Position numbers and translations under genes: made by a program. The notes beneath the pieces are model-generated. The model made no database searches, had not been told where the DNA came from, and worked only from the letters and a program-made list of their open reading frames with translations. Source: a virus (Duplodnaviria; Heunggongvirae; Uroviricota; Caudoviricetes). From it: a stretch of 38,535 bases of DNA. The DNA lies in the IMG/VR virus record IMGVR_UViG_2874968258_000008. One strand, given 5' to 3'. Positions 836 through 30,822 of the stretch are shown here, one piece after another (the stretch's first letter is position 1; each line of letters opens with the position of its first letter).

Positions 836-2338
836 TCATGTTTTGATTTGTGCGCTAATAGAACTTTTCTGTCTTTTCTTCTGCTCTTGAATGTATGTCT
901 GCACCATTTCTGTTATGGTTGAAAATGCACTATGTTCTTCTATAGTTATTTTTAATTTAAATGTTTTAATGACCGGATTGGTAAGGTTATTTGCATCAAC
1001 TCTCACCTCAATTGCACCATTCACTTTCTTTGGTTTGTTGGCTGTATATACGAACAACGGGAATATTTCTTCTTTGACTTGATGACGCCACTCTTCGCAT
1101 TCCAGCGATACAACTTGAACTGGCTCATTTCTCTTTTCTTTATAATAAAAATCGTTTTTATCCCTTTCTGTTGGAGTAAGAGATAACAAAGGACCAATTT
1201 CTTTTGAAATTATACTGGATAGCGGTGTTTCCAAAGCTCCCCCAGCGTAAGGCATTCTTTCTGTTACGCCACATACACTACGCCATTTTCCTTTGGGGGC
1301 GGTAGGGGCTGAAGGTAGGTCAATCCTTTTGCTTTCAGTCAGCTCTTCCATTATCTCCCAATTAAATCCACACAGACGAAAATCTCCTTTTGCTGTAAAT
1401 GTTACCACAGCACGTTCAGCGATAGTATAACCTGTGTTTTGTAATAAAAACGACAGCGGGTAATTTATTGCCTTCGGATTAATATGAGTATGACAGTTTT
1501 TCAGTATTTCTTCACACTGCTTTTTCCAAAGTGGATAATGTTTTTCTTTATAAAGAGAAATATCATCTGCTGATACAGGGAAATACTCCTGTTGACTAAA
1601 TGACTTGATGATTTTTTCTAGTGATTGTGGGGTAGTTTGTTCATTGTCAAAGTTTGTAACCAATGGGAATGCATCCGTTAGTTGACAAAGCAAATTATCA
1701 ACTTCATATTCAGATAAAGCTGTATAATAAGGAAGTACAATATTTAATTGCTCGTCATCGGCTACTTTAATGCTGAAATCGGGCATAGACTGAGTGAATT
1801 GCTTCAGCTTAGCTTCCAGCAATTTAATTTGTTTATCCTTTTCATCTGGCTCAGCAGGAAGCAACCATGAAGAAGGCACTTTATAGCAGATTATATTATG
1901 TTTTATTGCTGAAAAACGTGGACCGCTATCATTGGTAATGATTGCCACCTCCGAATCTGGATCGTCAGCGCAATACCCTGCCGCAATACCAACAAAACGA
2001 TCGTCGGCCTCCTGATAATCCAATTGTTCAGATAACTGTTCACATGGTTTCAGGCTTAGATCCATGGTAAGAAAAACTCGCGGCGAGCGTTCACGAATAA
2101 CAAGAGTCATGTCAGTTGAATCAACTACTTGATTAAATAGGCTAGCAGCCTTCCTTGCTTTTTTGGATAGGCGGGAATTACCTTGCCCTTTCTGGCGGTC
2201 AATCTCTTGCTGAATGGGCCTTGTAATAATGATACATACTTCATCACAAGCAGTAATCTCGGAAAAATTTACCTGCGTCAAGTCCTTGCATTGTAGAAAA
2301 ATGTTTGAGTCTGGGAATAAATACAGCTTTTTGTTCAT
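836..2338 (-). CDS. Cargo protein, 500 aa, N-terminal PIN-like nuclease domain plus about 350 aa of unknown C-terminal region
   Basis: Long ORF in a markedly AT-rich island between D and ogr; N-terminus LYLFPDSNIFL...VCIIITRPIQQEIDR...VAIITNDSGPRF has the spaced acidic residues on predicted strand ends typical of PIN domains; RBS-like GAGG before ATG; no P2 counterpart at this position. Confidence 0.7.
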   Translation of the reverse strand: MNKKLYLFPDSNIFLQCKDLTQVNFSEITACDEVCIIITRPIQQEIDRQKGQGNSRLSKKARKAASLFNQVVDSTDMTLVIRERSPRVFLTMDLSLKPCEQLSEQLDYQEADDRFVGIAAGYCADDPDSEVAIITNDSGPRFSAIKHNIICYKVPSSWLLPAEPDEKDKQIKLLEAKLKQFTQSMPDFSIKVADDEQLNIVLPYYTALSEYEVDNLLCQLTDAFPLVTNFDNEQTTPQSLEKIIKSFSQQEYFPVSADDISLYKEKHYPLWKKQCEEILKNCHTHINPKAINYPLSFLLQNTGYTIAERAVVTFTAKGDFRLCGFNWEIMEELTESKRIDLPSAPTAPKGKWRSVCGVTERMPYAGGALETPLSSIISKEIGPLLSLTPTERDKNDFYYKEKRNEPVQVVSLECEEWRHQVKEEIFPLFVYTANKPKKVNGAIEVRVDANNLTNPVIKTFKLKITIEEHSAFSTITEMVQTYIQEQKKRQKSSISAQIKT

Positions 2339-2563: not shown

Positions 2564-3673
2564 TCACTCTGTTTCTGCTATCCATTCCGGGATTTTTGCC
2601 TCAAGCTCAAGCTGCGTGGTAAAGCCGCTGTTATCAATGGTGTGCTCGGCTTTTGCAATAATCCAGTCCTGATTATCAATCTCGCTTTTAAATCCTGTTA
2701 CCGTGCCATGCATTTCGGGGTAGAGTTCTGCACGTCCATGCGCCAGTGTGATGGAGAATGATGCGGCTCCGCGTTGTAGCTGCTGCCACTTTGCCGCCGC
2801 TGCACGTCTTGCTGCCTGCTCGTTCTGATAAGTTTTGCGTAACACAAACACGTTGCCTTCCGCACCTTCCATATAGTCGCCTTCCCGGCTGCTGCTTTTC
2901 TCCTTTTTTGGTTTTGACGGTTTGCGGCGTTTCACGCTGACTTTTTTCTTTTTCCCGTAATTAAGATCAAGCCAGTAAGCGCGTACCCCCGTATACGCTT
3001 CGCGGTCAGCAATGCGGAACTGATGGCGATCGCCGCTGCTGCGTGTGATGGCGAACGAGGGCAACGGCTGGCCCTGTGCGTTCACGCCACCACCGGGCAT
3101 GATGAATAACAGATTACCGCTTTTTACCGTGGTGATTGCGCCCAGCATTTCCGCCATGCGCGTAAGGAAGGACATGTCGCTTTCTTCGGTCTGGTCGGCG
3201 TGGTCGATTTCGATATCCATCAGCATTTCGCTGATTTGCGGTTTCAGACCATACCGATGAGCGATGGCGGATACCACACGCTCAACGGTCACATCATGCC
3301 AGGACACCTCACGTTTAACGTTAAATTCAGCCCGAAAATCTGCGCTTCTGGCTGAAACAGTCAGCCTGTCCGGCGGTCCTTCGTGAGCGATTTCATCAAC
3401 AATGTAAGTGCCTTTTTCTGTCAGCGGTTCTCCCTTCCAGCCAATGAGAACCGTCAGGCGCGCGCCCCGTGGCGGTAGCTGCAACTGACCATCCGCATCA
3501 TCCAGCGTGATGGTGAGCTGGTCCGCCTCAAATCCCCGGTTGTCGGTCAGTGACAGGCTCATCAGGCGCTCTGCCACGCCTGACAGCGTTTTACCCTCCG
3601 CGAGAATATCAAAATCCGGCATTTTCACGGGGTCTGTGCCCTGACTGAGCAATTGCATGGTGGTGTCGGTCAT
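2564..3673 (-). CDS. D: Tail protein gpD (late control D protein family)
   Basis: 369-aa reading frame from internal ATG at 3673 preceded by GGGAGGGAG RBS (ORF track extends to 3805); sequence typical of P2 gpD / Mu gpP family. Confidence 0.85.
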   Translation of the reverse strand: MTDTTMQLLSQGTDPVKMPDFDILAEGKTLSGVAERLMSLSLTDNRGFEADQLTITLDDADGQLQLPPRGARLTVLIGWKGEPLTEKGTYIVDEIAHEGPPDRLTVSARSADFRAEFNVKREVSWHDVTVERVVSAIAHRYGLKPQISEMLMDIEIDHADQTEESDMSFLTRMAEMLGAITTVKSGNLLFIMPGGGVNAQGQPLPSFAITRSSGDRHQFRIADREAYTGVRAYWLDLNYGKKKKVSVKRRKPSKPKKEKSSSREGDYMEGAEGNVFVLRKTYQNEQAARRAAAAKWQQLQRGAASFSITLAHGRAELYPEMHGTVTGFKSEIDNQDWIIAKAEHTIDNSGFTTQLELEAKIPEWIAETE

Positions 3674-3830
3674 CTGCTCCCTCCCTGTGTGGCATGGTCG
3701 CATGTGCGTGCGGAGGGGGTTACTGCTTTTTGTTGTCGCCGTGGCGGGAGAATGGCGCAGGGGTGAGATTACGCGCGTGGTGGGTGATGATTGTTGCCGA
3801 ATCATTTAACGGATACAAGGGGTTGAAGCT

Positions 3831-5015
3831 ATGAGTGAAACTCGTTTTCATGGTGCCCGTGTTACGGAAAATACCGACCTGGTAACAGCGATTAACGATG
3901 TTGATTCCAGCGTTATCGGTATCGTGGCAACGGCGGATGATGCGGACGCGGAGCTGTTCCCGCTGAACAAGCCCACACTGCTGCCCCGCGTCAATGACGT
4001 GCTGGGAAAATGCGGAACAACGGGGACGCTTTATCGTGCGCTTAAGGCCATCGCAGACCAGGTGAGCACAAAGGTGATCGTCGTTCGCGTGGCTGAACAC
4101 AAAGAAGAAGACGGAAAAACGCAGGATCAACTGGTTATCGGTGGTTCTGAATCTGACGGCAGCTATACGGGGATGTATGCGCTGCTTGTTGCAGAGCAGG
4201 ATGAAAGCATCGGATACCGTCCGCGTATTCTGGCCGCGCCGGAGCTGGACACGGAGGCGGTGACAAAATCCCTGTGCGTGATTGCGGGTAAACTGCGCGC
4301 GTTTGTGTATGCCTCATGTCATGACTGTAACACGATGGCTGAGGCAATTACCTACCGCCAGAAATTCAACGAACGTGAGGTGATGCTCTTATGGCCGGAC
4401 TTCATCGCCTACAACCCGAAAAGTGGCAAAAACGAAACGTTCCCCGCGCCTGCCTATGCGTGCGGCCTTCGTGCGTACATTGACCATGAGCAGGGCTGGC
4501 ACAAATCGCTGTCCAACGTTCCGGTTAAAAATGTGCTGGGGATGTCCAGGCATGTGTTCTGGTCGTTGCAGGCCGAAGACAGTGATGCCAACAGCCTCAA
4601 CAACAAAGAAATCACGACCATTATTCGTCGCAACGGGTTCCGCTTCTGGGGCAACCGCACACCGGAAACGAACGCCTACATCTTTGAGGTGTATACCCGA
4701 ACCGCACAGGTGCTGGCTGATTCAATTGCGGAAGCGCAGTTTGAAACCATCGACAGTCCACTGACGCCTGCGAACGTGAAGGATGTTATCGGTGCCATCA
4801 GGGCAAAACTGGATTCACTGGTTACTGCCGGGAAACTGATTGGGGCGTCGTGCTGGTATGACGTGGTGGATAACGGCACCACGAATTTACGTCAGGGGCG
4901 CGTGCGTATTCGCTACAAATATACGCCTGTTCCCCCGCTGGAAGACATGGAGCTTTACCAGTCGTTTACTGATGAATTCTTTGGTCCCGCATTTGCGGTG
5001 CTGGGAGGTGCCTGA
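3831..5015 (+). CDS. FI: Tail sheath protein gpFI
   Basis: 394-aa ORF; conserved DADAE.FPLNKP and GTLY.AL.AIADQ motifs of P2 FI. Confidence 0.9.
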   Translation: MSETRFHGARVTENTDLVTAINDVDSSVIGIVATADDADAELFPLNKPTLLPRVNDVLGKCGTTGTLYRALKAIADQVSTKVIVVRVAEHKEEDGKTQDQLVIGGSESDGSYTGMYALLVAEQDESIGYRPRILAAPELDTEAVTKSLCVIAGKLRAFVYASCHDCNTMAEAITYRQKFNEREVMLLWPDFIAYNPKSGKNETFPAPAYACGLRAYIDHEQGWHKSLSNVPVKNVLGMSRHVFWSLQAEDSDANSLNNKEITTIIRRNGFRFWGNRTPETNAYIFEVYTRTAQVLADSIAEAQFETIDSPLTPANVKDVIGAIRAKLDSLVTAGKLIGASCWYDVVDNGTTNLRQGRVRIRYKYTPVPPLEDMELYQSFTDEFFGPAFAVLGGA

Positions 5016-5527
5016 TGGCTGTACCAAAACATCTTCGCTTTTTTACGCTGTTTGTGGATGGTGAAAACGAAGTGGGTAAGGTGACGTCCGTCACTCTGCC
5101 TAAGCTGACGCGCAAAACCGACAGCTACCGGGGTGGTGGCATGATGGGAGCGGTAAGTATTGATCTCGGCCTGGATGACTCCGCGCTTGATGCGAGCTTT
5201 GTCATGGGGGGCGCAGTTCGTGAGCTGTTCCTTAAGTATGGCGGCACGATTGACGGTACGCTGCTGCGTTTTGCGGGTGAATACTACACCGACGCTGAAA
5301 GCGACCTGTATGAAGTCGAAATGCGCGGACGTGTGACGGAAATTGATATGGGGGAAGCCAAACAGGGCGAAGCCACATCACACACTTACGCCATTAAAAA
5401 CACCTACTACAAGCTGAGTGTTAACGATCGCCCGTTGTGGGAGATTGACCTGCTGAACTTCATTTACCGGAAGGACGGCAGGGACATTGTGCCCGATCGC
5501 ATCCGTTCCGCGCTCGGGCTTGGCTGA
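5015..5527 (+). CDS. FII: Tail tube protein gpFII
   Basis: 170-aa ORF immediately after FI with ATGA start/stop overlap; P2 FII-like sequence. Confidence 0.9.
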   Translation: MAVPKHLRFFTLFVDGENEVGKVTSVTLPKLTRKTDSYRGGGMMGAVSIDLGLDDSALDASFVMGGAVRELFLKYGGTIDGTLLRFAGEYYTDAESDLYEVEMRGRVTEIDMGEAKQGEATSHTYAIKNTYYKLSVNDRPLWEIDLLNFIYRKDGRDIVPDRIRSALGLG

Positions 5528-5581
5528 TAAGTAATATGCAGGCGGCGCAGTGCGTCGCCTCTGACTGAAAGGAGTTTCCTG

Positions 5582-5947
5582 ATGAAAGAGACGAAAAACA
5601 TCGATACCGAAAACACGGTCGTTGCTGACACTGTGAAAGAAACCAGTGAGCGTGGCGTAAAACTTACCCAACCAATTGAGCGAGGCGGCGAAAAAATCAC
5701 GTATGTGGAGATCACCGGGGCTATTGAGCAGGCTGGATCTCTGCGAGATTTGTCGCTGTCTGATGTGCTGAATTTGAAAGCGGAATCCATGTTTACGCTG
5801 CTGTCACGCGTGACATCACCGCGACTGGATGAAGTGACGATCAAAAAAATGGCATCCCGTGACTTTATTCAGTTATGTGTGGTTGCCGTAAATTTTTTGA
5901 GCGGTGCGGACTCTGGCGAGAAGAACGAACAGGCGACGGAAGCCTGA
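5582..5947 (+). CDS. E: Tail assembly chaperone gpE
   Basis: 121-aa ORF between FII and the tape measure gene, position and size as P2 E. Confidence 0.8.
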   Translation: MKETKNIDTENTVVADTVKETSERGVKLTQPIERGGEKITYVEITGAIEQAGSLRDLSLSDVLNLKAESMFTLLSRVTSPRLDEVTIKKMASRDFIQLCVVAVNFLSGADSGEKNEQATEA

Positions 5948-6111
5948 TCACGGTTGTGTGCTTTGAGCACATAGAAGACTTTGTGGCGGATATTGCCGCC
6001 ATTTTTAACTGGTCGCCCGCCGAAATCTTCATGATGACGCCCGGCGAAGTGGTTAGCTGGCGTGAGCGGGCGGCACTTCGCAGCGGGAATGCAGACAATG
6101 AAGACTCTTGA
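5582..6111 (+). CDS. gpE+E' frameshift fusion (programmed -1 ribosomal frameshift)
   Basis: Slippery heptamer T_TTT_TTG at 5893-5899 in E frame; -1 frame continues open to TGA at 6109-6111 (ORF 5875..6111) overlapping the start of T, as for P2 E/E' and lambda G/GT. Confidence 0.55.
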
Positions 6112-8905
6112 TATCCGGGTCGCTTTCAGCGCCGTTGACAGGCTGACCCGGCCTGCCGAAAACGCCCGCCGCCTGATGGGGCAGTTTGGTGACTCCATCC
6201 AGCGAACGCAGGGGGCGATCAAAAATCTCGAGCGTCAGGCGCGTTCATTTGAGCGCGCCCGTGACGCTGTCAGTAAAGCGGATGCGGGCATCGTGAAAGC
6301 ACGACGCCAGCTTAACGCCCTTAATCAGTTACAACGCACGGGTACAGTGCTCAGCGAAAAACAACAAAAGCTGATGCAGCAGTTAAGCACCCGGCTTGAA
6401 CGCCTGAATGAATCGCGCACACGGGAAATTCAGAAAATGCGGGAACTTGGCGGAGAGCTGAAACGCCACGGCATTTCCCTGACAGGCAGCGATAACACCA
6501 TCCAGCAGGCCATCAGACGCACCGGACAATACAACAACCAGCTTGAACGCGAACGGCGGGCGCTTGCGCGTGTAACGCAGGCGCGTGAGCGGTATTCACG
6601 CGCGCAGGAAACAGCGGGAAAACTGAAAACAGGTGGTGCGCTGGCAACAGGTGCGGCGGCAGCGGGCGGCTATGCTGCCGGGCGTTTTTTGCAGCCCGCT
6701 ATCGGGTTCGGGAAAGAGATGTCCCGTGTTCAGGCACTGACGCGAATCGATAAAAACAGCCCGCAGTTTAAGGCGCTGCGTGAGCAGGCGTTAAAACTTG
6801 GCTCTGAAACGCAGTTCACCGCAGGCGATGCCGCCAGTGGACAGGCATTTCTTGCAATGGCTGGTTTCACACCGCAGGCCATTCAGGCTGCGCTTCCCGG
6901 CGTGCTGAGCATGGCAACGGCTGGCGGTATGGACCTCGGCGAGACGGCGGATATTGGTTCCAATATCCTGACGCAGTTCGGCCTCTCTGCTGACCAGATG
7001 GACCGGGTCGGTGACACACTTACCGCAGCGTTTACCCGTACCAACACTGACCTTCGCGCACTGGGCGAAACCATGAAATATGCAGGTCCGGTGGCGGGTA
7101 AGCTGGGAATATCGCTGGAGCAGGCCGCAGCGATGGCGGGCGTGCTGGCGAAGATGGGTATCAGGGGGAGTGATGCAGGTACAGCGTTGCGTAAAAGCCT
7201 GGCCAATCTGTCATCACCGCCAAAGGCAGCGGCAGAAGCACTGAAAGAGCTGGGGGTGTCAGTTGCTGACGCCAAAGGCAAAATGCGCCCGATGGAGAAT
7301 GTGCTGGCCGATCTCTATAAAGCCACCCGCAAATACGGGGAGGTTGACCGGGTATCGTTCTTTAAGGACATTGCCGGAGAAGAGGCTTTCACATCATTTA
7401 TGGGCCTCGTTGATGCGGCAGGTGACGGCTTCTTAGCCAAACTGAGAAAAGAACTTGAAGGCGCGCGCGGTGAGGCAGAACGCACGGCAAAGGTTATGGC
7501 CAATAACCTTGATGGCAACCTGAAATCACTCGGCAGTGCATGGGAAGGTCTGCGTATTCGCATCAGTGATCTGGTTGACGGTCCGCTGCGTTCTGTCACG
7601 CAGTGGCTCACGCGGGTTGTCTCAAAGGTGACGGCGCTGGCGCAGGCCCACCCGGCACTGACGCGCCAGTTACTGATAGCGGGAGGCGCACTGCTGGCGA
7701 CAACAGCAACGGTTGGTTCGTTGTCTCTGGTTATTGGGGTGCTTCACGGGAAGCTGGCTACGTTGCGTCTCGGTTTTTCTCTCCTGACCGAATCAATGAA
7801 TGTTGTCAGGGTTCTGCCTGCATTATGGGGAATGGTGACGGGTTCCGTTTCTTTACTTGGTGGCGCTATCGGGGCGCTGTTCAGTCCGGTTAGTCTTATC
7901 GTGGCTGCGCTTGCCGGAGCTGCCGTTCTTATCTGGAAATACTGGGATCCCATCAGGGCATTTTTTGCCGGGGTGTTCAGCGGGATTATGGAAAGGCTGA
8001 CCCCGTTGCGCGAAACCTTTGAACGGTTTGGCCCTGTTTTTGATGTCGTGCGCGATGGGATTATTCAGGTCTTTAACTGGTTTAAATCGCTGCTGTCACC
8101 GATGGAGTCCAGCAAGGAAACGCTGGATAAATGTGCCAGTGCTGGCGAGATATTCGGTAACGTTCTTGGCGGTGCGTTACAACTTGTTCTGACACCTGCA
8201 AAAATGCTACTGGATACGCTGGCGTGGATACTTGAAAAACTTGGCGTCCTTCCGGATGAAGCGGAAAGGGCGCGCAAGAAAATCGAAGACGCACAGCGTG
8301 CGGCCATTCTTCAGGACAAGGTTGCCTTGCTTCAGGGGAACCTGGCGAAAATCAATCCGCCGAAGCCTGTGGAAAATGGCAATGGCACCGGAGGTGATAA
8401 ACCCAAAGACAACAAACCGCTCACAGACAGCAATACCGGGACGCTACGCAGACTCAGCAAAATTGCTGATAACACAGGTAAGCTGGTTGATGAGACGAAA
8501 AAACGCATTGGCCCCGGCGATATTGTCTTTAAGAACCTGCCCCGCGCACTTGCTGTTCGTGGGGAGTGGCAGGAGCGGAAGATTGCGCAGGTCAGTAAGC
8601 CTGCCCCCGCAATTAATATCACACCCGTGGTCCCGGCTCCGCTGCCTCCGGCGCTGGTCCCTGTTGTTGCGGCCAGCTCCCGCCCGGTGGCGGAGGCCAT
8701 ACGCTCTCCAGTGGCATCAGTTCCTGTAACTTCCCGTAACCGGGAGCCTGTTGCCTCCGGATTTGGTGGTGAAATTCATGTTCATCTGCATAACGTTGTT
8801 ACGCAGAATCCCCGCGAACTGGCGAAACTGGTCGGTGAAATGGTCAGGGCAGAAATGGAACGGCGCGCCCGTGCCGGGCGTGGCAGTTTTTACGATAAAG
8901 ATTGA
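6089..8905 (+). CDS. T: Tail tape measure protein gpT
   Basis: About 940-aa ORF, Ala/Gly-rich with central hydrophobic segments, follows E/E'; start could be ATG 6089 or 6098 (ORF track opens at 6062). Confidence 0.85.
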   Translation: MQTMKTLDIRVAFSAVDRLTRPAENARRLMGQFGDSIQRTQGAIKNLERQARSFERARDAVSKADAGIVKARRQLNALNQLQRTGTVLSEKQQKLMQQLSTRLERLNESRTREIQKMRELGGELKRHGISLTGSDNTIQQAIRRTGQYNNQLERERRALARVTQARERYSRAQETAGKLKTGGALATGAAAAGGYAAGRFLQPAIGFGKEMSRVQALTRIDKNSPQFKALREQALKLGSETQFTAGDAASGQAFLAMAGFTPQAIQAALPGVLSMATAGGMDLGETADIGSNILTQFGLSADQMDRVGDTLTAAFTRTNTDLRALGETMKYAGPVAGKLGISLEQAAAMAGVLAKMGIRGSDAGTALRKSLANLSSPPKAAAEALKELGVSVADAKGKMRPMENVLADLYKATRKYGEVDRVSFFKDIAGEEAFTSFMGLVDAAGDGFLAKLRKELEGARGEAERTAKVMANNLDGNLKSLGSAWEGLRIRISDLVDGPLRSVTQWLTRVVSKVTALAQAHPALTRQLLIAGGALLATTATVGSLSLVIGVLHGKLATLRLGFSLLTESMNVVRVLPALWGMVTGSVSLLGGAIGALFSPVSLIVAALAGAAVLIWKYWDPIRAFFAGVFSGIMERLTPLRETFERFGPVFDVVRDGIIQVFNWFKSLLSPMESSKETLDKCASAGEIFGNVLGGALQLVLTPAKMLLDTLAWILEKLGVLPDEAERARKKIEDAQRAAILQDKVALLQGNLAKINPPKPVENGNGTGGDKPKDNKPLTDSNTGTLRRLSKIADNTGKLVDETKKRIGPGDIVFKNLPRALAVRGEWQERKIAQVSKPAPAINITPVVPAPLPPALVPVVAASSRPVAEAIRSPVASVPVTSRNREPVASGFGGEIHVHLHNVVTQNPRELAKLVGEMVRAEMERRARAGRGSFYDKD

Positions 8906-8911
8906 GGAGTC

Positions 8912-9406
8912 ATGGCCATGATGATGATCTACGGCATGTTTGTTTTTGAGCTGCGTACATTGCCGCATCAGCAGTTACAGCAAAACAAAAGCTGGCGGCA
9001 TGTGAAAAATGAACGCGTTAACCGTTCGGCAAGCTGGCAGTATATCGGTGCAGGTGATGAGCGCATCGTTCTTTCTGGTGTGCTTTATCCTGAAATTACA
9101 GGTGGCGAAGTGTCGCTGTCGCTGCTGACCACGCAGGCGTATACAGGACGACCCTGGCCTCTGATTGATGGCGTCGGGCAGATTTACGGCATGTATGTCC
9201 TGACCGAAACGAATACGACCCGCTCCGAGTTTGATCGCTACGGTAAGGCGAAAAAGATAGAATTTTCACTGACTCTTGAACGCTGTGATGAGGATTTGCG
9301 GGAGCGCCTGCAATCCTCATCGTTCAGCGATATGCTGTCCGGCTTCAAAGATAAGGTAACATCATCCCTTAACAGCGCGGCCAGTTCAGTTAAAGGGTTG
9401 TTCTGA
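8912..9406 (+). CDS. U: Tail protein gpU
   Basis: 164-aa ORF, YGMFVFELRTLPHQ N-terminus similar to P2 U; directly after T. Confidence 0.85.
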   Translation: MAMMMIYGMFVFELRTLPHQQLQQNKSWRHVKNERVNRSASWQYIGAGDERIVLSGVLYPEITGGEVSLSLLTTQAYTGRPWPLIDGVGQIYGMYVLTETNTTRSEFDRYGKAKKIEFSLTLERCDEDLRERLQSSSFSDMLSGFKDKVTSSLNSAASSVKGLF

Positions 9407-9414
9407 TTTAACAC

Positions 9415-9452
9415 AAAAACCGCTAATGGTCAGATTAGCGGTTATTTTGTTT
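9415..9452. terminator. Bidirectional rho-independent terminator between convergent U and invertase genes
   Basis: Hairpin ACCGCTAAT-GGTCAG-ATTAGCGGT flanked by A-run upstream and TATTTTGTTT downstream, so it carries a U-tract on either strand. Confidence 0.5.
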
Positions 9453-10029
9453 CCTGACTCTTCTCTATTGTTCCGATTGATTCTCCTGCGGGGTGGTAAC
9501 GATAAATCGTCGATATACCAATGCCGTAAATTATTGCCAGTTGTTTTCTGTCGTGCCCGTTTTTGATCAGCCTTGCTATTTGCTCATGCTGTTCTTTTGT
9601 CAGCTTCGGTCGACGTCCGCCTGTGCGCCCCCGTGCGCGTGCTGCCGCCAGTCCGGCCAGTGTACGTTCAACAATTAATTCACGTTCCATTTCAGCCAGG
9701 GCACCCATCACGTGGAAGAAAAAACGCCCCATTGGAGAAGATGTATCTATGCTGTCGGTCAGACTGCGAAAATTAATTCCTCGCTCCCGTAGTTCCCCGA
9801 CGAGAGAAATCAGATGTTTCATGCTTCGCCCGAGGCGATCCAGTTTCCAGACAACCAGCGTGTCACCTTTTTGAAGGCGCTTTAAAGCGCGTTTTAATCC
9901 CGGTCGGTCTGTCTTTGTCCCGCTTAATTTATCTTCAAATATTTGTTCACATCCTGCACAAACAAGAGCGTTTCGTTGCAGGTCTGTATTCTGGTCATTT
10001 GTTGATACCCTTACATAGCCAATCAGCAC
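9442..10029 (-). CDS. Serine-recombinase DNA invertase (Gin/Pin/Cin/Hin family)
   Basis: Translation LIGYVRVSTNDQNTDLQRNAL...GDTLVVWKLDRLGRS...GRRPKLT is near-identical to Mu Gin / e14 Pin; GTG start at 10029 with GGGAG RBS preferred over the upstream ATG at 10047 used by the ORF track. Confidence 0.85.
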   Translation of the reverse strand: MLIGYVRVSTNDQNTDLQRNALVCAGCEQIFEDKLSGTKTDRPGLKRALKRLQKGDTLVVWKLDRLGRSMKHLISLVGELRERGINFRSLTDSIDTSSPMGRFFFHVMGALAEMERELIVERTLAGLAAARARGRTGGRRPKLTKEQHEQIARLIKNGHDRKQLAIIYGIGISTIYRYHPAGESIGTIEKSQETK

Positions 10030-10083
10030 GCTGAATCTCCCGTCCAAAAGCGCAAATCATGTCATGCAGGCCGGAAACGGCCA

Positions 10084-10094
10084 TTATCTAAAAC
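10084..10094. repeat. Outer part of the left inversion crossover site (gix-like), separated from the rest by the IS insertion
   Basis: TTATCTAAAAC immediately left of IS copy A; joined to 11362..11376 (minus one copy of the 3-bp duplication) it reconstitutes TTATCTAAAACCTCGGTTTACAGGAA, the inverted partner of the site at 15693..15718. Confidence 0.55.
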
Positions 10095-10158
10095 TGAGGT
10101 AGCCTGAGTTTAACGGACACTCCTTCCTGAAATAGAATGGCATCAGAAGGAGCTAATA

Positions 10159-10461
10159 ATGAGCAGAAAAACCCAACGTTACTCTAAAGAGTTCAAAGCC
10201 GAAGCTGTCAGAACGGTTCTTGAAAATCAACTTTCGATCAGTGAAGGCGCTTCCCGATTATCTCTTCCTGAAGGCACTTTAGGACAATGGGTTACCGCCG
10301 CCAGAAAAGGGCTCGGTACTCCTGGTTCCCGCACGGTGGCTGAACTGGAATCTGAAATTCTGCAACTGCGTAAGGCGTTAAATGAAGCTCGCCTTGAGCG
10401 AGATATATTAAAAAAAGCAACAGCGTATTTTGCACAGGAGTCGCTGAAAAATACGCGTTAA
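10159..10461 (+). CDS. IS3-family transposase OrfA (HTH)
   Basis: 100-aa ORF; slippery A_AAA_AAG at 10418-10425 near its 3' end. Confidence 0.85.
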   Translation: MSRKTQRYSKEFKAEAVRTVLENQLSISEGASRLSLPEGTLGQWVTAARKGLGTPGSRTVAELESEILQLRKALNEARLERDILKKATAYFAQESLKNTR

Positions 10462-10496
10462 TCGAACAATGGCGACAACAATTTCCCATTGAAGCG

Positions 10497-11315
10497 ATGT
10501 GTCAGGTATTTGGTGTATCCAGGAGCGGTTATTACAACTGGGTACAGCATGAACCCTCAGACAGAAAACAAAGTGATGAGCGGCTAAAACTGGAGATTAA
10601 GGTGGCACATATCCGCACTCGCGAAACATATGGAACCCGGCGGCTCCAGACGGAGCTGGCAGAGAATGGCATCATCGTTGGTCGTGACCGACTGGCACGT
10701 CTTCGTAAGGAGCTAAGGCTACGCTGTAAGCAGAAACGCAAGTTCAGAGCGACTACGAACTCGAACCACAATCTGCCAGTTGCGCCAAATCTGCTGAACC
10801 AGACGTTCGCTCCTACAGCACCAAATCAGGTCTGGGTGGCGGACCTGACGTATGTTGCCACACAGGAGGGATGGTTGTACCTCGCTGGCATCAAAGATGT
10901 TTATACGTGCGAAATTGTCGGCTACGCCATGGGAGAGCGCATGACAAAAGAGCTGACAGGTAAAGCCCTGTTTATGGCGCTCAGGAGCCAGCGCCCACCT
11001 GCCGGGCTAATCCACCACTCTGATCGAGGTTCACAGTACTGCGCATACGATTACCGGGTCATACAGGAGCAGTTTGGTCTGAAAACATCAATGTCGCGTA
11101 AAGGTAACTGTTACGACAACGCTCCGATGGAAAGCTTCTGGGGAACGCTGAAAAATGAGAGCCTGAGCCACTATCGTTTTAATAACCGGGATGAAGCCAT
11201 CTCAGTAATACGGGAATACATTGAGATTTTCTACAATCGTCAGCGTCGTCACTCTCGTCTGGGGAATATCTCCCCGGCAGCCTTCAGGGAAAAATATCAT
11301 CAGATGGCTGCTTAA
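10497..11315 (+). CDS. IS3-family transposase OrfB (DDE integrase domain), expressed as OrfAB by -1 frameshift
   Basis: 272-aa ORF in the -1 frame relative to orfA; DDE region HHSDRGSQY...CYDNAPMESFWGTLK. Confidence 0.85.
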   Translation: MCQVFGVSRSGYYNWVQHEPSDRKQSDERLKLEIKVAHIRTRETYGTRRLQTELAENGIIVGRDRLARLRKELRLRCKQKRKFRATTNSNHNLPVAPNLLNQTFAPTAPNQVWVADLTYVATQEGWLYLAGIKDVYTCEIVGYAMGERMTKELTGKALFMALRSQRPPAGLIHHSDRGSQYCAYDYRVIQEQFGLKTSMSRKGNCYDNAPMESFWGTLKNESLSHYRFNNRDEAISVIREYIEIFYNRQRRHSRLGNISPAAFREKYHQMAA

Positions 11316-11358
11316 AAAAAGAACAAATGGTAGTGTCCGCTATTGCCAGTACACCTCA

Positions 11359-11376
11359 AACCTCGGTTTACAGGAA
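11359..11376. repeat. Inner part of the left inversion crossover site (gix-like) including the AAC target duplication
   Basis: AACCTCGGTTTACAGGAA directly right of IS copy A; CCTCGGTTTACAGGAA is the exact inverted copy of TTCCTGTAAACCGAGG in the H gene. Confidence 0.6.
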
Positions 11377-12387
11377 ACGGTAAACAAGGCTGGTAACGCC
11401 GTGCAAAAAAATGGCGATACGTTGTCCGGTGGACTTACTTTTGAAAACGACTCAATCCTTGCCTGGATTCGAAATACTGACTGGGCAAAGATTGGGTTTA
11501 AAAATAATTCGGATGCAGACACCGATTCCTACATGTGGTTTGAAACAGGCAACAACGGCAATGAATATTTCAAATGGAGACACCGCATCATTGGCACCCG
11601 GCCTAAAGACCTGATGAATCTTAAATGGAATGCTTTGTCTGTTCTTGTTGAAGCCCTTTTCAGCAGTGAAGTGAAAATATCGACAGTCAATGCACTGAGG
11701 ATATTTAATTCATCTTTTGGTGCCATTTTTCGTCGTTCTGAAGAATGCCTGCATATCATCCCTACACGAGAGAATGAAGGGGAAAATGGTAATATAGGGC
11801 CACTACGCCCCTTTACGCTTAATCTCAGAACTGGCCGGATAAGCATGGGGCATGGTCTTGATGTTACAGGGGATATATTTGCAAACCGTTTTGCAATTAA
11901 CAGTAGTACCGGCATGTGGATTCATATGCGTGACCAGAATGTTATTTTGGGACGTAATGCGGTATCCACTGATGGTGCTCAGGCTTTGCTCCGTCAGGAC
12001 CATGCCGACCGCAAATTTATGATTGGCGGTCTGGGAAATAAGCAATTTGGCATCTACATGATTAATAACTCAAGGACAGCCAATGGCACCGATGGTCAGG
12101 CGTACATGGATAATAACGGGAACTGGCTTTGCGGCTCGCAAGTTATTCCCGGCAACTATGGCAATTTTGATTCCAGATATGTGAAAGATGTTCGACTTGG
12201 TTCACAGCAATATTATGGAGTGAACAACTGGCAAACATGGAATTTTCAGTGCCCGTCAGGCTATGTACTGACGGGGATTAACGTACAGGATACCGGAAAA
12301 AACTCTGCCGATAATATTGCAGGCGTTCATTACAGGCCAGTGCAAAAGTATATAAATGGCACTTGGTATAATGTGGCGAGTATTTAA
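11359..12387 (+). CDS. Alternative tail-fibre C-terminal cassette (Hv'), silent in this orientation
   Basis: Open frame begins at the crossover site with LGLQETVN, the same junction peptide found in H, and ends ...[11 protein letters not shown] like the H C-terminus (...[11 protein letters not shown]); no start codon of its own; the ORF-track start at 11221 lies inside the IS. Confidence 0.7.
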
Positions 12388-12388
12388 T

Positions 12389-12916
12389 ATGATGCACTTA
12401 AAGAACATAAAAGCAGGTAATGCTAAAACAGTGGAGCAGTATGAGTTAACAAAGAAGCACGGAGTCATCTGGCTTTACTCTGAGGACGGAAAAAACTGGT
12501 ATGAGGAAGTGAAGAACTTTCAGCCAGACACAATAAAGATTGTTTACGATGCAAATAATATTATTGTCGCCATCACCAAAGATGCCTCCACGCTTAACCC
12601 TGAAGGTTATAGCGTCGTTGAGGTTCCTGATATTACAGCTAATCGTCGTGCTGATGATTCCGGTAAGTGGATGTTTAAGGACGGAGCTGTGGTTAAACGG
12701 ATTTATACGGCTGACGAACAGCAACAACAGGCCGAATCACAAAAGGCCGCATTGCTTTCCGAAGCTGAATCAGTCATCCAGCCGCTGGAACGCGCTGTCA
12801 GGCTGAATATGGCGACGGACGAGGAACGCACACGACTGGAAGCATGGGAACGCTACAGTGTTCTGGTCAGCCGTGTGGATACGGCAAAGCCAGAATGGCC
12901 ACAAAAGCCTGAGTAA
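12389..12916 (+). CDS. Tail fibre assembly chaperone G' (partner of Hv')
   Basis: 175-aa frame from [11 protein letters not shown]; paralog of the G gene at 14332..14745; conserved C-terminus ...[15 protein letters not shown]. Confidence 0.8.
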
Positions 12917-12921
12917 AAATT

Positions 12922-12941
12922 AAGGCCCGATATCGGGCCTT
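12922..12941. terminator. Palindromic hairpin between convergent G' and G 3' ends
   Basis: Perfect palindrome AAGGCCCGATATCGGGCCTT flanked by A/T runs. Confidence 0.45.
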
Positions 12942-12944
12942 GTT

Positions 12945-13075
12945 TCATTCTGGTTGTTCGGGAAACGTTACTGGCAGGCTGGAGGTGTCTGTGGATTCGA
13001 CCTTCTGCGCATAGAGCATCCACTCGGTTAATTTTTGTTTATTCTCGTCGGAAATAATGCCCAGCCGTAGCTGTG
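12945..13075 (-). pseudogene. G: 3' fragment of tail fibre assembly gene G, cut off by IS copy B
   Basis: Minus-strand frame continuous with G across the IS (after removing IS plus one GTG duplication) translates QLRLGIISDENKQKLTEWMLYAQKVESTDTSSLPVTFPEQPE then TGA at 12947-12945, a typical Tfa C-terminus. Confidence 0.6.
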
Positions 13076-13118
13076 TGAGGTGTACTGGCAATAGCGGACA
13101 CTACCATTTGTTCTTTTT

Positions 13119-13937
13119 TTAAGCAGCCATCTGATGATATTTTTCCCTGAAGGCTGCCGGGGAGATATTCCCCAGACGAGAGTGACGACGCTGACGATTG
13201 TAGAAAATCTCAATGTATTCCCGTATTACTGAGATGGCTTCATCCCGGTTATTAAAACGATAGTGGCTCAGGCTCTCATTTTTCAGCGTTCCCCAGAAGC
13301 TTTCCATCGGAGCGTTGTCGTAACAGTTACCTTTACGCGACATTGATGTTTTCAGACCAAACTGCTCCTGTATGACCCGGTAATCGTATGCGCAGTACTG
13401 TGAACCTCGATCAGAGTGGTGGATTAGCCCGGCAGGTGGGCGCTGGCTCCTGAGCGCCATAAACAGGGCTTTACCTGTCAGCTCTTTTGTCATGCGCTCT
13501 CCCATGGCGTAGCCGACAATTTCGCACGTATAAACATCTTTGATGCCAGCGAGGTACAACCATCCCTCCTGTGTGGCAACATACGTCAGGTCCGCCACCC
13601 AGACCTGATTTGGTGCTGTAGGAGCGAACGTCTGGTTCAGCAGATTTGGCGCAACTGGCAGATTGTGGTTCGAGTTCGTAGTCGCTCTGAACTTGCGTTT
13701 CTGCTTACAGCGTAGCCTTAGCTCCTTACGAAGACGTGCCAGTCGGTCACGACCAACGATGATGCCATTCTCTGCCAGCTCCGTCTGGAGCCGCCGGGTT
13801 CCATATGTTTCGCGAGTGCGGATATGTGCCACCTTAATCTCCAGTTTTAGCCGCTCATCACTTTGTTTTCTGTCTGAGGGTTCATGCTGTACCCAGTTGT
13901 AATAACCGCTCCTGGATACACCAAATACCTGACACAT
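13119..13937 (-). CDS. IS3-family transposase OrfB (copy B)
   Basis: 272-aa ORF identical in translation to 10497..11315. Confidence 0.85.
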   Translation of the reverse strand: MCQVFGVSRSGYYNWVQHEPSDRKQSDERLKLEIKVAHIRTRETYGTRRLQTELAENGIIVGRDRLARLRKELRLRCKQKRKFRATTNSNHNLPVAPNLLNQTFAPTAPNQVWVADLTYVATQEGWLYLAGIKDVYTCEIVGYAMGERMTKELTGKALFMALRSQRPPAGLIHHSDRGSQYCAYDYRVIQEQFGLKTSMSRKGNCYDNAPMESFWGTLKNESLSHYRFNNRDEAISVIREYIEIFYNRQRRHSRLGNISPAAFREKYHQMAA

Positions 13938-13972
13938 CGCTTCAATGGGAAATTGTTGTCGCCATTGTTCGA

Positions 13973-14275
13973 TTAACGCGTATTTTTCAGCGACTCCTGT
14001 GCAAAATACGCTGTTGCTTTTTTTAATATATCTCGCTCAAGGCGAGCTTCATTTAACGCCTTACGCAGTTGCAGAATTTCAGATTCCAGTTCAGCCACCG
14101 TGCGGGAACCAGGAGTACCGAGCCCTTTTCTGGCGGCGGTAACCCATTGTCCTAAAGTGCCTTCAGGAAGAGATAATCGGGAAGCGCCTTCACTGATCGA
14201 AAGTTGATTTTCAAGAACCGTTCTGACAGCTTCGGCTTTGAACTCTTTAGAGTAACGTTGGGTTTTTCTGCTCAT
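13973..14275 (-). CDS. IS3-family transposase OrfA (copy B)
   Basis: 100-aa ORF identical in translation to 10159..10461. Confidence 0.85.
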   Translation of the reverse strand: MSRKTQRYSKEFKAEAVRTVLENQLSISEGASRLSLPEGTLGQWVTAARKGLGTPGSRTVAELESEILQLRKALNEARLERDILKKATAYFAQESLKNTR

Positions 14276-14331
14276 TATTAGCTCCTTCTGATGCCATTCT
14301 ATTTCAGGAAGGAGTGTCCGTTAAACTCAGG

Positions 14332-14745
14332 CTACCTCAGTGAGTCCCATAGCTGGGTTTTATCCCTGACGAGCTGTAGCAGGCTTTGCTTTTCATTTTC
14401 CGCTTGTTGCCTCTGCTCTTCCCCGGTATAAGTTCGCTTTATCACTACGCCATCTTTGAACATCCATTTACCTGAAATATCAGCCCGGCGATTTGCTGTA
14501 ATATCAGGAACCTCAACGACGCTTGCGCCTTCCGGATTAATTGCTGAAACATCCTTTTCAATACAAATAATAACGCCGTTGTGGTCATAGACCATTTTCA
14601 ACGTATCAGGCTGAAAGTTCTTTTGTTCCTCATACCAGTTTTTCCCATCCTCTGTATAAAGCCATTTGATGTTAAATTGTTTCGTTAGCTGGTATTGCTC
14701 TTTTGTTTCAGGATTACCAGCAGAAATGTTTTTTAAGTGCATCAT
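14332..14745 (-). pseudogene. G: Tail fibre assembly gene G, 5' portion, truncated by IS copy B
   Basis: 137-aa ORF whose last two codons and stop lie in the IS terminus; about 40 aa shorter than paralog G' and missing the conserved C-terminus found at 12945..13075. Confidence 0.7.
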
Positions 14746-14747
14746 CG

Positions 14748-16718
14748 TTAAATACTCCCCGCGTTATACCACGTCCCATTAATGCAATACTGAATTGGCC
14801 TTGCCTGAGTTGTATCAATTAGTTCATCTCTGTTTGAGTTAACGGAACCGGTAACAACATAACCTGACCTGTCAGACCATCCGGGACCATTCCATGTCTG
14901 AACAGATAACAGACCACCAAGGCGAATACCTGTAATAAACCTTGAGTTACATTCTGCCTGCGTATATGCACCAACATCTCCCGCAGAGGGTTTGCGGGTT
15001 GTGGTGTAAAACTCTGACCAGTCAGCTTCAAAGCCATAACCATCACGCGCTGAACGATAAAAAATACCGCCGTTCCTGTAATTCACGCGGAACTGTACAG
15101 CAGGGCAGCTCCCCGTATTCATATTGAAGTGGAGGATTAATGTCGATGCGCCACCAATGTTTGCGTTATAGACCCCGCTATTCCAGTTCCAGCCAACAGC
15201 TTTATCATTTCCGACAGTGCTTCCTGTTTGCCCTAAAGCAAATGCAGGTTGTTGATTTTTCGTGTTGTAGTCTCGTCGCCAGCCAGGAGCGTAAGCATCA
15301 CCATGATTAATATAAGTGAATTGAGCGTTAGTAATTCCGCCACCGCTGGACGTGCTCGGCGTGGTAACGCGTATGGTCATTGCGCCGCGAGTGCCAATAA
15401 CTTCCACCACAGCACCTGCAAGACAAATATTTCCGCAACCTGTATCTGTAATGACCTTATTATTTGCATAAGCCCATGAGCCTTTGCACATCCAGTAAGG
15501 ATGGTTAAATGCTCCCTGACTCTCCAGCCACGAAATAAATTGCGCGGTTGTCCAGACCTGACTATCGCCACCAATATTCAGCCATGAGCTATATGCGCGG
15601 CAGGCACCAATATTTTTGGTGAAGGTATCTTTCCCCGGAATATCTGCGCCGTTCTGGTTTTTCTGTAATGCGCCAGAAGCCTGATTTACCGTTTCCTGTA
15701 AACCGAGGTATTCGATAACGGCGGCAACGGTCGATTTCGCAAGAATATCCCGCCCGACTTTTGTCAGGGTTGCCAGGCTGGCGACATCATTCCCCGTAAA
15801 ATACGGAAACCTGTCTGCCGCAGTAGCAAGCCCCGCCAGCGCCGTCAGAGTGGCATCTTTCGGTTGCTTACCCGCAAGCGCGTTAGTCATGGTGGTCGCA
15901 AAATTCGGGTCGTTGCCCAGCGCCGCCGCCAGCTCGTTCAGTGTGTTCAGTGCATCAGGCGAAGAGTCTACAAGTGCGGCAATCGCAGCCATAACGAAAG
16001 CCGTGCTTGCGATTTGGGTATTATTCGTTCCCTGTCGCGCAGTTGGTGTTGTTGGCGTTCCGGTCAGTGCCGGGCTGTTTAATGGGGCTTTCTTGTTCGT
16101 TTCATCCATTACTGCCTTAACGGCTTTTGGTGTCGCTGCCAGCGTTTCAGACGTGCTGTTGGTGGCGTTGCTGAGCTGGACAAGGCCTTTTGCGGTCAGC
16201 GAGGCGTCCGGGTGACGTCGTGACTGTTCATGCTCTTTCAGTTTGTCATCCACGTAATTCACTGTGGCCATCACCATGGTGTTATCCACGGTAAGCGCCA
16301 CAGTGGCAGTGCTGGATACGGTCAGAATGGTGCGAAATGTTTGTGCACGTCCGGATCCTTCGGCAACGGTTGGCTTGTAACTTTCGGCAGTATTGCCTAC
16401 CGCGATCAAATCGCCGTGCTCATCAAACACACCAATTTCCCGGATCCAGAATCCGCCCGTTTCAGGAGGAATAACCAGCTCCGCAATAATGTGGTTCTGA
16501 TGTGTTGCGTCCAGGGTGACGCGATTAACGGTATGTCGCCACACCTCATGCACAAGACGGGTCTGCTTACTGTCTGGCGTGGGTAAAGTACCGCCGCCGT
16601 CACCCACGGCCATATGTGTCAGGCGGACAGGTTTCCCATCTGGCGCGGTTGCCTGCGCTAATTTTTTTGCACCCGTATCGGTGATAATGGTTTTAAATTT
16701 TCGTGTTGTGGTACTCAT
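14748..16718 (-). CDS. H: Tail fibre protein gpH (constant N-terminal part fused to currently expressed variable part Hv)
   Basis: 656-aa ORF; N-terminus [23 protein letters not shown] typical of P2 H; crossover site lies inside the gene at codons around 337-345. Confidence 0.9.
15693..15718. repeat. Right inversion crossover site (gix/cix-like) inside gene H
   Basis: TTCCTGTAAACCGAGGTATTCGATAA; first 17 nt identical to my recollection of the Mu gix site (TTCCTGTAAACCGAGGTTTTGGATAA), 22 of 26 overall; inverted copy at the start of Hv'. Confidence 0.7.
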
Positions 16719-22323: not shown

Positions 22324-23124
22324 TTAACCGCGCTTCGCCTTCTGCGTCGCGGTGGTTTTTCGTGTTGCAGGCTTCCGCGTTGTCTTTTTACTTTCGCTGC
22401 TTTCGTCCTGCGCCTGCTGTGCGCTGGCGTCTTCTGGTGCGGCTGCGGAATCGGCTTTTTTCAGGGCGCGGGAAAGGGTTGCAATCTCGCGTTTCACACC
22501 TGCGTTCTGGTTCAGATGCATCGCTTTGCGCAGCAGCTTCAGTGATGAGGCCATGCTGTCCGCATCGCTCAGGCCACGGCGGGCAAAGGCGCACGCCTTG
22601 CATAATTTGGCGCGCACTTCGTCCGGCATATCCTGGTTGGCGACAATTTCCCAAAGTGTGTCCAGTGGTTCGATAAAGACGGACAAATCCGCGTCGGCAT
22701 CCGTCCCGGCCTGCGTCAGTACCGGATTGCAGATTTCTTCGGTCAGCACTGTGGCAGCAGTACGGCCAAAGTTATCCGGCATGATGAGGTTGTGACGGAC
22801 CGCATACGCACCAATACGCAGCGCAAGCGGAAGATCGCCGCAGTCAATCGCCCACACCATCAGCGTGGCAATCACTTCGTCCTGTTGCCCGCCGTCAGCC
22901 TCCAGCGTTCCCTCAATCCAGCCGGAAAAGTCCGGCAACAACGCTTTTTTGATGTCGGCTTTCGCGCTTCTGGCCTGTACGCCCTTAAGCCGGGCCTGTG
23001 CCAGACGCAGACGATACAGCACCTCTTCATGCGCGGTACGCGCGGCGTGGTCCACACCTTCATTCGCCCGGCCTGCGCGCTGTGCCATCACGTTCTGCCA
23101 GTGTTGCTGTGCAGGAGTAATCAT
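22324..23124 (-). CDS. M: Terminase small (endonuclease) subunit gpM
   Basis: 266-aa ORF between N and L; basic C-terminus. Confidence 0.8.
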   Translation of the reverse strand: MITPAQQHWQNVMAQRAGRANEGVDHAARTAHEEVLYRLRLAQARLKGVQARSAKADIKKALLPDFSGWIEGTLEADGGQQDEVIATLMVWAIDCGDLPLALRIGAYAVRHNLIMPDNFGRTAATVLTEEICNPVLTQAGTDADADLSVFIEPLDTLWEIVANQDMPDEVRAKLCKACAFARRGLSDADSMASSLKLLRKAMHLNQNAGVKREIATLSRALKKADSAAAPEDASAQQAQDESSESKKTTRKPATRKTTATQKAKRG

Positions 23125-29862: not shown

Positions 29863-30822
29863 TTACTCCTTGTCCATTGCGTACAGCCCATTAACCAGAG
29901 CAAACTGTGGCACCCCGTCCGCGATGAAAGTCGCATTAACTCCGCAGGCTTCGCGGATAGCGGGTGCCACAATCTCCGCCCCTCCACCGACAACCATCAC
30001 CCGCCCGTAACCCGAAAAACCCGCCAGCGCGCGGATCACGCGTTGTTTCAGTGTTTCTTCCTTTTCACGAATAACCGCCATCAGGCTGGCGTAATGCGCG
30101 TCATTGTGGATGTGCTGGCGCAGCCAGGCTTCATCATGGCGATGTTCGATAATGGTATTGGCGATGTGGTGACTGGTGCGCATACCGTTAGTGGCCATCA
30201 CCGACAGTACGGCATCGGCCATCAGAGAAACGCCTACGTGTGGATCGCAAAACACCTGGCTGATACCTGCCAGTTGCCCCTGAACCTTTGCCACATCCAG
30301 CGTGGTTCCGCCCAAATCCACAATCAGCAGGGATTCAAACGGACTCATGTCAGCCAGTGCCTTAAAGCCAGCCGGAATGGATTCAGGCATAACCCGCACG
30401 TTACGGATAGTGAATGCTTCGCCGTTCTGGTACTCCACCGGGCGCATAACGTTCGCTTTTTTGCGGTTGATGTTGGCCATGTCCGGCTGTGCGTTTGTGT
30501 CGAAATACTCGCTCAGTGGCAGGGTGACAACCACATCCACCTCCTGTGGCGTGATGCCTGATTTGACCAGCGCGTGATGAATGGCAATGACATTTACATC
30601 GCTGTACTGGTATTGCGTGTCGGTTGTCTGGACAAAGCGATCGCTGACCGGATCAAAACCATAGCGCACGCCATCAAGCATGTAGTTCGCGGGCTGCATG
30701 CCACCGAACGGCGCAGACCATTCCGACTTGAAGCTGTTCGGGCTGATGGCGTTGCGGCGTTCGCCGTTCTCAGTCCATGCCAGCTTGATGTTGGTGGAGC
30801 CGTCGTCGATACAAATTTTCAT
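29863..30822 (-). CDS. parM: ParM/StbA-family actin-like segregation ATPase
   Basis: 319 aa; actin-fold motifs DDGSTNIK (phosphate 1), IVDLGGTTLDVA (phosphate 2), VVGGGAE (adenosine); extended similarity to R1 ParM along the whole length. Confidence 0.8.
   Translation of the reverse strand: MKICIDDGSTNIKLAWTENGERRNAISPNSFKSEWSAPFGGMQPANYMLDGVRYGFDPVSDRFVQTTDTQYQYSDVNVIAIHHALVKSGITPQEVDVVVTLPLSEYFDTNAQPDMANINRKKANVMRPVEYQNGEAFTIRNVRVMPESIPAGFKALADMSPFESLLIVDLGGTTLDVAKVQGQLAGISQVFCDPHVGVSLMADAVLSVMATNGMRTSHHIANTIIEHRHDEAWLRQHIHNDAHYASLMAVIREKEETLKQRVIRALAGFSGYGRVMVVGGGAEIVAPAIREACGVNATFIADGVPQFALVNGLYAMDKE

Follow-up and report, generated by a model that had tools for sequence, protein, structure and literature searches.

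Invertible tail-fibre segments have already been described in P2-like prophages of Escherichia coli, namely in Phi1 and Phi4 of strain EC958 and in enteropathogenic E. coli (EPEC) E2348/69 (PMC4134206; PMC4272514). These segments are approximately 3.1 kb long, and their inversion was observed in culture and could be driven in trans (PMC4134206; PMC4272514). The invertases also act in trans on the sites of other prophages (PMC4134206). A switch with the same layout is found in the G segment of phages Mu and D108. Here we describe such a switch in a 38,535-nucleotide stretch of viral DNA (IMG/VR record IMGVR_UViG_2874968258_000008, termed the window), where an IS600-like insertion sequence (IS) is located inside one of the two crossover sites. 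A first-pass annotation, made from the letters of the window, had predicted that this insertion abolishes invertase-mediated switching and locks the tail fibre in its current orientation.

The window was found to be a P2-like (Peduoviridae) prophage of Shigella sonnei, 100% identical to S. sonnei AR-0030 (CP032523.1) over the 20.4 kb compared. AR-0030 belongs to S. sonnei genotype 2.1 (PMC10924462). As in Mu and D108, the constant part of the fibre gene (Hc) is followed by a crossover site, a variable part (Hv) with its assembly gene tfa, the alternative pair tfa' and Hv', a second crossover site approximately 55 bp upstream of the invertase start codon, and an invertase gene reading away from the segment. 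The invertase is 85% identical to D108 Gin, its catalytic domain is nearly identical to that of Mu Gin, and the first approximately 100 nt of its gene, which span the predicted enhancer, are the same as in D108 gin. Unlike Mu and D108, the switch is carried by a P2-like prophage and not by a transposable phage, one of its sites holds an IS600 and one assembly gene holds a second IS600. A G-segment switch of the Mu type has thus been transplanted into the tail module of a P2-like prophage. With respect to the segments of P2-like E. coli prophages, the 5' site of EC958 Phi4 is the same as the site in the H gene of the window, and the 3' site of Phi4 differs by one nucleotide from the second site of the window as reconstituted below (PMC4134206). 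The difference lies in the IS: a search of 5,426 E. coli genomes found no copy at this place.

An IS600 element within the invertase-proximal crossover site

The crossover sites and the two IS600 copies, termed IS_A and IS_B, are located as follows.

10084..10094, plus strand: outer 11 bp (TTATCTAAAAC) of the invertase-proximal crossover site, orphaned
10092..10094, no strand: left target-site duplication AAC of IS_A; AAC is single at empty sites
10095..11358, plus strand: IS_A, IS600 of 1264 bp with TG...CA ends and duplication AAC
11359..11361, no strand: right target-site duplication AAC of IS_A, by direct reading of the sequence
11351..11376, plus strand: hybrid crossover site ACACCTCAAACC-TC-GGTTTACAGGAA, with 8 bp of IS600 end and 18 bp of original site; core TC at 11363-11364
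13076..14339, minus strand: IS_B, 100% identical to IS_A; duplication GTG at 13073-13075 and 14340-14342
15693..15718, minus strand: intact crossover site within H, TTATCGAATACC-TC-GGTTTACAGGAA on the minus strand; core at 15705-15706

IS600 belongs to the IS3 family and is abundant in Shigella, and IS_A is ordinary in every feature; only its target is unusual. The element is approximately 1.26 kb long with imperfect inverted repeats at its termini (TGAGGT... and ...ACCTCA), and it contains orfA (10159..10461), an overlapping orfB frame ending at 11315, a slippery motif of the -1 frameshift type (AAAAAAG, A6G) at 10411..10417 and rve (DDE) domains according to Pfam. Over its whole length it showed 100% identity to elements that PGAP names "IS3-like element IS600 family transposase", as the first-pass annotation had assigned it, and in the annotation of locus L002 the IS600 appears as a fused 385-aa product. 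The 3-bp duplications, AAC for IS_A and GTG for IS_B, are each single at the empty sites. AAC was also considered as a duplication common to both copies and rejected; IS_B is flanked by GTG, and the extension of the repeat arms was an artefact. In one genome, S. sonnei AR-0426 (CP044151.1, locus L003), the A-run of the IS_A frameshift motif carries a one-base deletion at window position 10410, which could reflect either misreading of the homopolymer during sequencing or a mutation fusing orfA and orfB in frame.

When IS_A and one AAC are removed, 10084-10094 joins 11362-11376 to give TTATCTAAAACCTCGGTTTACAGGAA. This reconstituted 26-bp site is identical at 26 of 26 positions to D108 gixR, the annotated right inverted repeat of the G segment. 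Its only other match in the window is the site in H at 15693..15718, which lies on the opposite strand and has two mismatches (TTATCGAATACCTCGGTTTACAGGAA), and the match was obtained in 0 of 100 shuffles. The proposal that removal of the IS restores a Gin-type crossover site, inverted relative to that in the H gene and recognizable by alignment to gix and cix sites, was therefore confirmed. The switch has two inverted 26-bp sites, each with two imperfectly symmetric 12-bp halves around a matching 2-bp core (TC/GA), of which the second is complete only after removal of the IS. The repeats surrounding the sites extend over 52 nt at 81% identity and include a perfect stretch of 25 nt.

Empty sites were found in other genomes, including copies of the same prophage without the IS, which the first-pass annotation had suggested looking for. 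Our comparison series consisted of near-identical S. sonnei prophages (>99.9%) retrieved by exact-protein look-ups. Its IS-free copies, among them S. sonnei 53G (locus L010), carry the uninterrupted 26-mer, and E. coli 755 has exactly the same 26-mer with its flanks. In 45 complete E. coli genomes the IS-less junction likewise aligned in one piece, at 93-95% identity.

IS_A is inserted between positions 11 and 12 of the site, with the core at positions 13-14, that is, one base short of the core as had been claimed. AAC corresponds to site positions 9-11, and because these were duplicated, the right junction retains positions 9-26. It thereby contains the inner half-site in full, together with the TC core and AACC from the outer half. 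At the eight replaced positions the terminal bases of IS600 (...ACACCTCA) match the original site at 4/8. In its present state the second site is a hybrid that matches the original at 22/26 positions and in which the central palindrome AAACCTCGGTTT is perfect. The centre AAACCNNGGTTT is likewise kept perfect at the right junction, and apart from this the window has a single match to it, the site in H, which has one mismatch. Since a scan of the window for AAACCNNGGTTT with one mismatch allowed gave no gix-like centre beyond these two, no alternative partner site is available.

Both orientations of the segment in IS-bearing genomes

Three alleles of the locus were found in the comparison series.

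IS-free allele: for example S. sonnei 53G (HE616528.1); the empty sites of both IS are exact
IS_A-only allele: CP180280.1 and AATFNM01 (loci L026 and L032/L041)
IS_A + IS_B allele: the group of the window

The existence of genomes with IS_A only indicates that IS_A was inserted first and IS_B later. Both insertions lie within one lineage, which is marked by a derived A at position 8339, and IS_A + IS_B are common to genomes of both orientations. IS-free copies also occur in both orientations. One IS-free draft contig (FTYM01000015.1, locus L017) contains junctions of the invertase-proximal site to both Hv and Hv' together with a partial second copy of the invertase gene, which points to a duplication or else to a chimeric assembly of a culture in which both orientations were present.

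Among the genomes carrying IS_A, the segment has the orientation of the window in AR-0030, CP044191.1, AKNC01 and QWTA01, whereas it is flipped in AR-0426 (L003), AKND01 (L005) and CXEB01 (L008). The two groups have IS_A at the same nucleotide with the same AAC and have the same IS_B. In the window and in loci L002, L004 and L006 the right end of IS_A joins Hv' and Hc joins Hv, while in the three flipped genomes the IS end joins Hv and Hc joins Hv'; the flipped junctions are clean and reciprocal. In L003 and L005 the block 11360..15709 was inverted as a whole (4350 nt, 100% identity), giving the new junctions IS end, AAC, site, Hv and Hc, site, Hv'. The right end of IS600 runs straight into Hv also within the 1.5-kb contig of CXEB01, so this junction is not a product of scaffolding. 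The position and orientation of IS_A relative to the invertase gene are unchanged in both groups. As IS_A neither moves nor turns, the exchange took place to the right of it, within the 25-nt identical stretch that contains the core.

To count the inversions we compared orientation with single-nucleotide polymorphisms (SNPs), polarized by the IS-free copies as outgroup. The derived alleles at positions 22527, 17702 and 10062 nest cleanly, but orientation does not. The informative combinations are the following.

Flipped, 17702/22527 = C/C: L005
Window orientation, 17702/22527 = C/C: L006, L039
Flipped, 17702/22527 = T/T: L003
Window orientation, 17702/22527 = T/T: L004

Orientation thus fails the four-gamete test with SNPs 17702 and 22527, and given clonal descent at least two inversions occurred after both IS insertions. 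These inversion products, present despite the insertion, contradict the prediction of a locked fibre. The switch is damaged, not locked.

Proposed mechanism of inversion and alternative explanations

The switch would normally work by a Gin-like invertase exchanging DNA at two inverted 26-bp sites, one in H and one 55 bp upstream of the invertase gene, so as to alternate two fibre C-termini, each with its own assembly gene. Transposition of IS600 into the invertase-proximal site, with duplication of AAC, split this site physically but would not have killed it, and the right junction would serve as a "quasi" site through AACC and the matching bases of the IS600 end. Either the prophage's own invertase, which is intact, or a related one supplied in trans may pair this hybrid site with the site in H with the help of the predicted enhancer, and inversion would continue, probably at a reduced rate. 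The second IS600 later struck the assembly gene of one fibre set.

Degenerate half-sites are known to recombine in related systems. Iida and Hiestand-Nauer reportedly found in 1987 that the Cin invertase of phage P1 uses "quasi" sites, a good site recombining with a poorly matching half if the core dinucleotide fits. This classical work on Cin is cited in the study of the EC958 prophages, where the 3' site of Phi2 inverts naturally in spite of a very degenerate outer half (GAGAGATAAACG-TT-...) (PMC4134206). The outer half of P7 cixL is CAATCCTAAACC. P7 cixL and the Phi2 3' site are demonstrably inverting natural sites with outer halves at least as divergent as that of the hybrid site. The hybrid site differs from these and from the Cin quasi sites in that its degenerate half was made by an IS end together with a target duplication.

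Four other explanations were considered. The first-pass reading, that the insertion destroys the site and freezes the fibre in the orientation at which the IS landed, has in its favour that the 26-bp site is physically split, with its outer 11 bp including TTATC now 1.27 kb away, and that the window orientation is the commoner one among IS_A + IS_B contigs (roughly 9 vs. 5). We nevertheless consider it very unlikely, because the opposite orientation is seen, with junctions that are clean and reciprocal, in three independent assemblies that carry the identical insertion, and because orientation is homoplastic on the SNP tree. That no inversion followed the insertions is also the premise of a model where the orientations pre-existed in an IS-free population, and IS600 reached the same nucleotide either by independent insertions or by recombination between backgrounds. 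IS-free copies do occur in both orientations, and the target ACCTC resembles the IS600 end ACCTCA and could, speculatively, be a preferred target. On the other hand, identical position, orientation and duplication of both IS_A and IS_B would be needed in each background in addition to the shared A at 8339, and the four-gamete pattern would require several independent double insertions, which makes this model hardly credible.

A flipped IS-bearing structure might be an assembly artefact, since repeats, here two IS copies and the short inverted repeats, are a classic cause of misassembly and the IS-free draft L017 has a chimera-like structure with both junction types. However, a misjoin at the IS would invert 11359..13075 and not 11360..15709, the 32-nt repeat is spanned by ordinary reads, and the IS end joined to Hv was read directly in the short-read contig L008, the draft L005 and the finished genome L003; we therefore regard artefacts as highly improbable. 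RecA-dependent homologous recombination between the short inverted repeats, without participation of the invertase, is an unlikely source of the flips as well. The exchange was mapped only to a 25-nt identical stretch, and about 25 nt is the minimum length for RecA-mediated exchange. The identical 1264-bp IS600 copies, 1.7 kb apart, would be far better substrates, yet neither inversion nor deletion between them was found in the five assemblies spanning both, whereas two or more flips took place at the 25-nt stretch. The lack of such recombinants argues against general homologous recombination as the driver, and all components for the action of the invertase are intact. Inversion via the two inverted IS600 copies themselves predicts that 11359..13075 is inverted with swapped flanks; no genome shows this, and it was rejected.

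We infer that the flips were catalyzed by the invertase at the hybrid site. Invertase-mediated exchange is the likeliest mechanism, with a probability of about three in four, and its rate is probably below that of IS-free strains. Several points qualify this reading. The outer TTATC motif is changed to ACACC in the hybrid site, and in the Hin-hix structure a TTATC-type outer motif is the main contact of the helix-turn-helix. The exchange point is bounded only to the 25-nt window of identity, which is consistent with exchange at the core but does not prove it. Orientation was called from consensus assemblies only, and the phylogenetic argument uses two informative SNPs in approximately 20 kb and seven informative IS-bearing genomes. 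Finally, the invertase gene has lost its native upstream sequence, which may have changed its expression; sigma-70 promoter scans of the upstream region gave no minus-strand match either with or without the IS.

The first-pass annotation was also correct that the insertion separates the invertase gene from the segment, which is now 1.27 kb further away. The enhancer of this family of invertases works at kilobase distances. Given this, and because the invertases of the family act in trans (PMC4134206), the separation should not matter in itself.

It appears fairly likely that the IS600 end together with its own 3-bp duplication rebuilt a working hybrid site, and that a Gin-type switch thereby survives an insertion through its crossover site. 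A literature search for IS600 in connection with an invertase site or a tail fibre found no paper linking them in the library searched. What we describe is an ordinary IS hit on a known type of switch; its variant feature is an IS-end/gix hybrid site that evidently still recombines.

Fibre cassettes, prophage context and significance

Read along the minus strand, the locus has the order Hc, H site, Hv, truncated tfa, IS_B, tfa', Hv', hybrid site, IS_A, orphaned 11 bp, 55-bp spacer and invertase gene. Its genes and segments are as follows.

9442..10029, minus strand: Gin-type serine DNA invertase gene, intact, 195 aa with GTG start; Pfam Resolvase and HTH_7
9944..10011, minus strand: putative recombinational enhancer in the 5' end of the invertase gene, predicted purely by homology to the enhancer annotated in P7 cin (offsets +18..+85)
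11362..12387, plus strand: Hv', alternative C-terminal tail-fibre segment, silent in the orientation of the window
12389..12916, plus strand: tfa', intact tail-fibre assembly gene for Hv', 175 aa; Pfam Caudo_TAP
12945..13075, minus strand: 3' remnant of tfa severed by IS_B, including the left GTG at 13073-13075
14332..14745, minus strand: truncated tfa, the assembly gene in use in the orientation of the window, 137 aa; positions 2-87 of 131 of the Caudo_TAP profile only
14748..16718, minus strand: tail-fibre gene H (constant Hc and variable Hv), 656 aa; Pfam Phage_tail_fib, Phage_fiber_2 and gp37_C
11365..15704, no strand: invertible segment between the cores, 4340 bp including IS_B and approximately 3.07 kb without it

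The invertase has the N-terminal catalytic domain of serine recombinases, with Ser9 in the motif YVRVSTNDQ, and a C-terminal helix-turn-helix. It matched the Mu Gin structures 4M6F and 3UJ3 with E = 4e-101, the alignment to 4M6F covering residues 1-182, and it was identical among the S. sonnei copies compared. Switches of this type have a Fis-dependent enhancer that acts in cis from the 5' part of the invertase gene. As judged from sequence, the predicted enhancer region of the gene in the window is intact. At window position 10062, 33 nt upstream of the GTG, the window and AR-0030 alone have a T where all other S. sonnei and E. coli copies have a C; this change could affect invertase expression. 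An 18-bp hairpin with 89% complementarity (9410..9451; AACACAAAAACCGCTAAT / ATTAGCGGTTATTTTGTT) is located between the convergent U and invertase genes and is probably a bidirectional terminator.

The two fibre C-termini come with two assembly genes of the Caudo_TAP family and fuse in frame to the constant N-terminus. In the flipped genomes Hv' is in frame with Hc, which gives an H protein of 678 aa beside an intact tfa'. The tfa product is 177 aa and intact in IS-free copies, where the empty site of IS_B is exact, and 137 aa in the presence of IS_B. As IS_B cuts tfa, the fibre set expressed in the orientation of the window is defective, while the silent set of Hv' and tfa' is intact. With a truly locked switch the prophage would have no way out of the defective set. 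Since flipping continues, the intact set can come into register, as in AR-0426.

Two further variations were observed around the fibre genes. Locus L007 (QWTA01000045.1) has 12 SNPs within 165 bp of the constant part of H (window 15811..15975) and is otherwise near-identical, which looks like a gene-conversion patch from the fibre gene of another prophage. In L014 (FUCQ01000048.1) and L040 (CXDC01000039.1) a second set of fibre-tip and assembly cassettes adjoins the locus, possibly a neighbouring prophage or a multi-segment arrangement.

The remainder of the window has the structural, replication and integration gene set of a P2-like prophage. It includes the P2-type genes D, sheath, tube (FII), E, tape measure (T), U, V, W, J, I and H as well as portal-side genes, capsid, terminase, gpA and integrase, and it is collinear with Escherichia phage 500465-2 (Peduoviridae, genus Gemsvirus) at approximately 94% identity. 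The FI-FII-E-T-U block, within 2564..9406, is on the plus strand, opposite to D (minus) and H. Such a reversal of FI-U is absent from the canonical P2 order. The same arrangement was found in E. coli 755 (L001) and phage 500465-2 (L022) and is therefore typical of the lineage. A secondary gix-like site as the cause of the reversal was ruled out; the window scan described above gave the two known sites only, and none flanks the FI-U block.

A 500-aa protein with a PIN_4 domain is encoded at 836..2338, adjoining gene D, and a ParM-like actin is encoded inside the prophage at 29863..30822. Both are accessory cargo, and a PADLOC scan of the accessory genes gave no match to a defence system. S. sonnei 53G and a relative (L010 and L012) carry a different IS, with transposase open reading frames of 121 aa and 301 aa, between D and the PIN-domain gene; the window lacks this element.

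The invertible fibre switch is as much a textbook element as IS600, and Shigella prophages are routinely hit by IS, so that what we describe is mostly ordinary genome decay. The locus does call for caution, in that a structural "disruption" at a phase-variable locus does not equal loss of function unless comparative or read-level data are at hand. The IS-free, IS_A-only and IS_A + IS_B alleles are lineage markers inside genotype 2.1, whereas the orientation of such segments is homoplastic, and phylogenies should be built with differences in it masked. If our interpretation is true, the prophage is a natural site-truncation experiment, in which inversion in vivo proceeds with no more than the core, one complete half-site and AACC from the other. 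S. sonnei genotype 2.1 would then offer, with the same three alleles, a ready allelic series for the contribution of the outer half-site to the rate and orientation bias of inversion.

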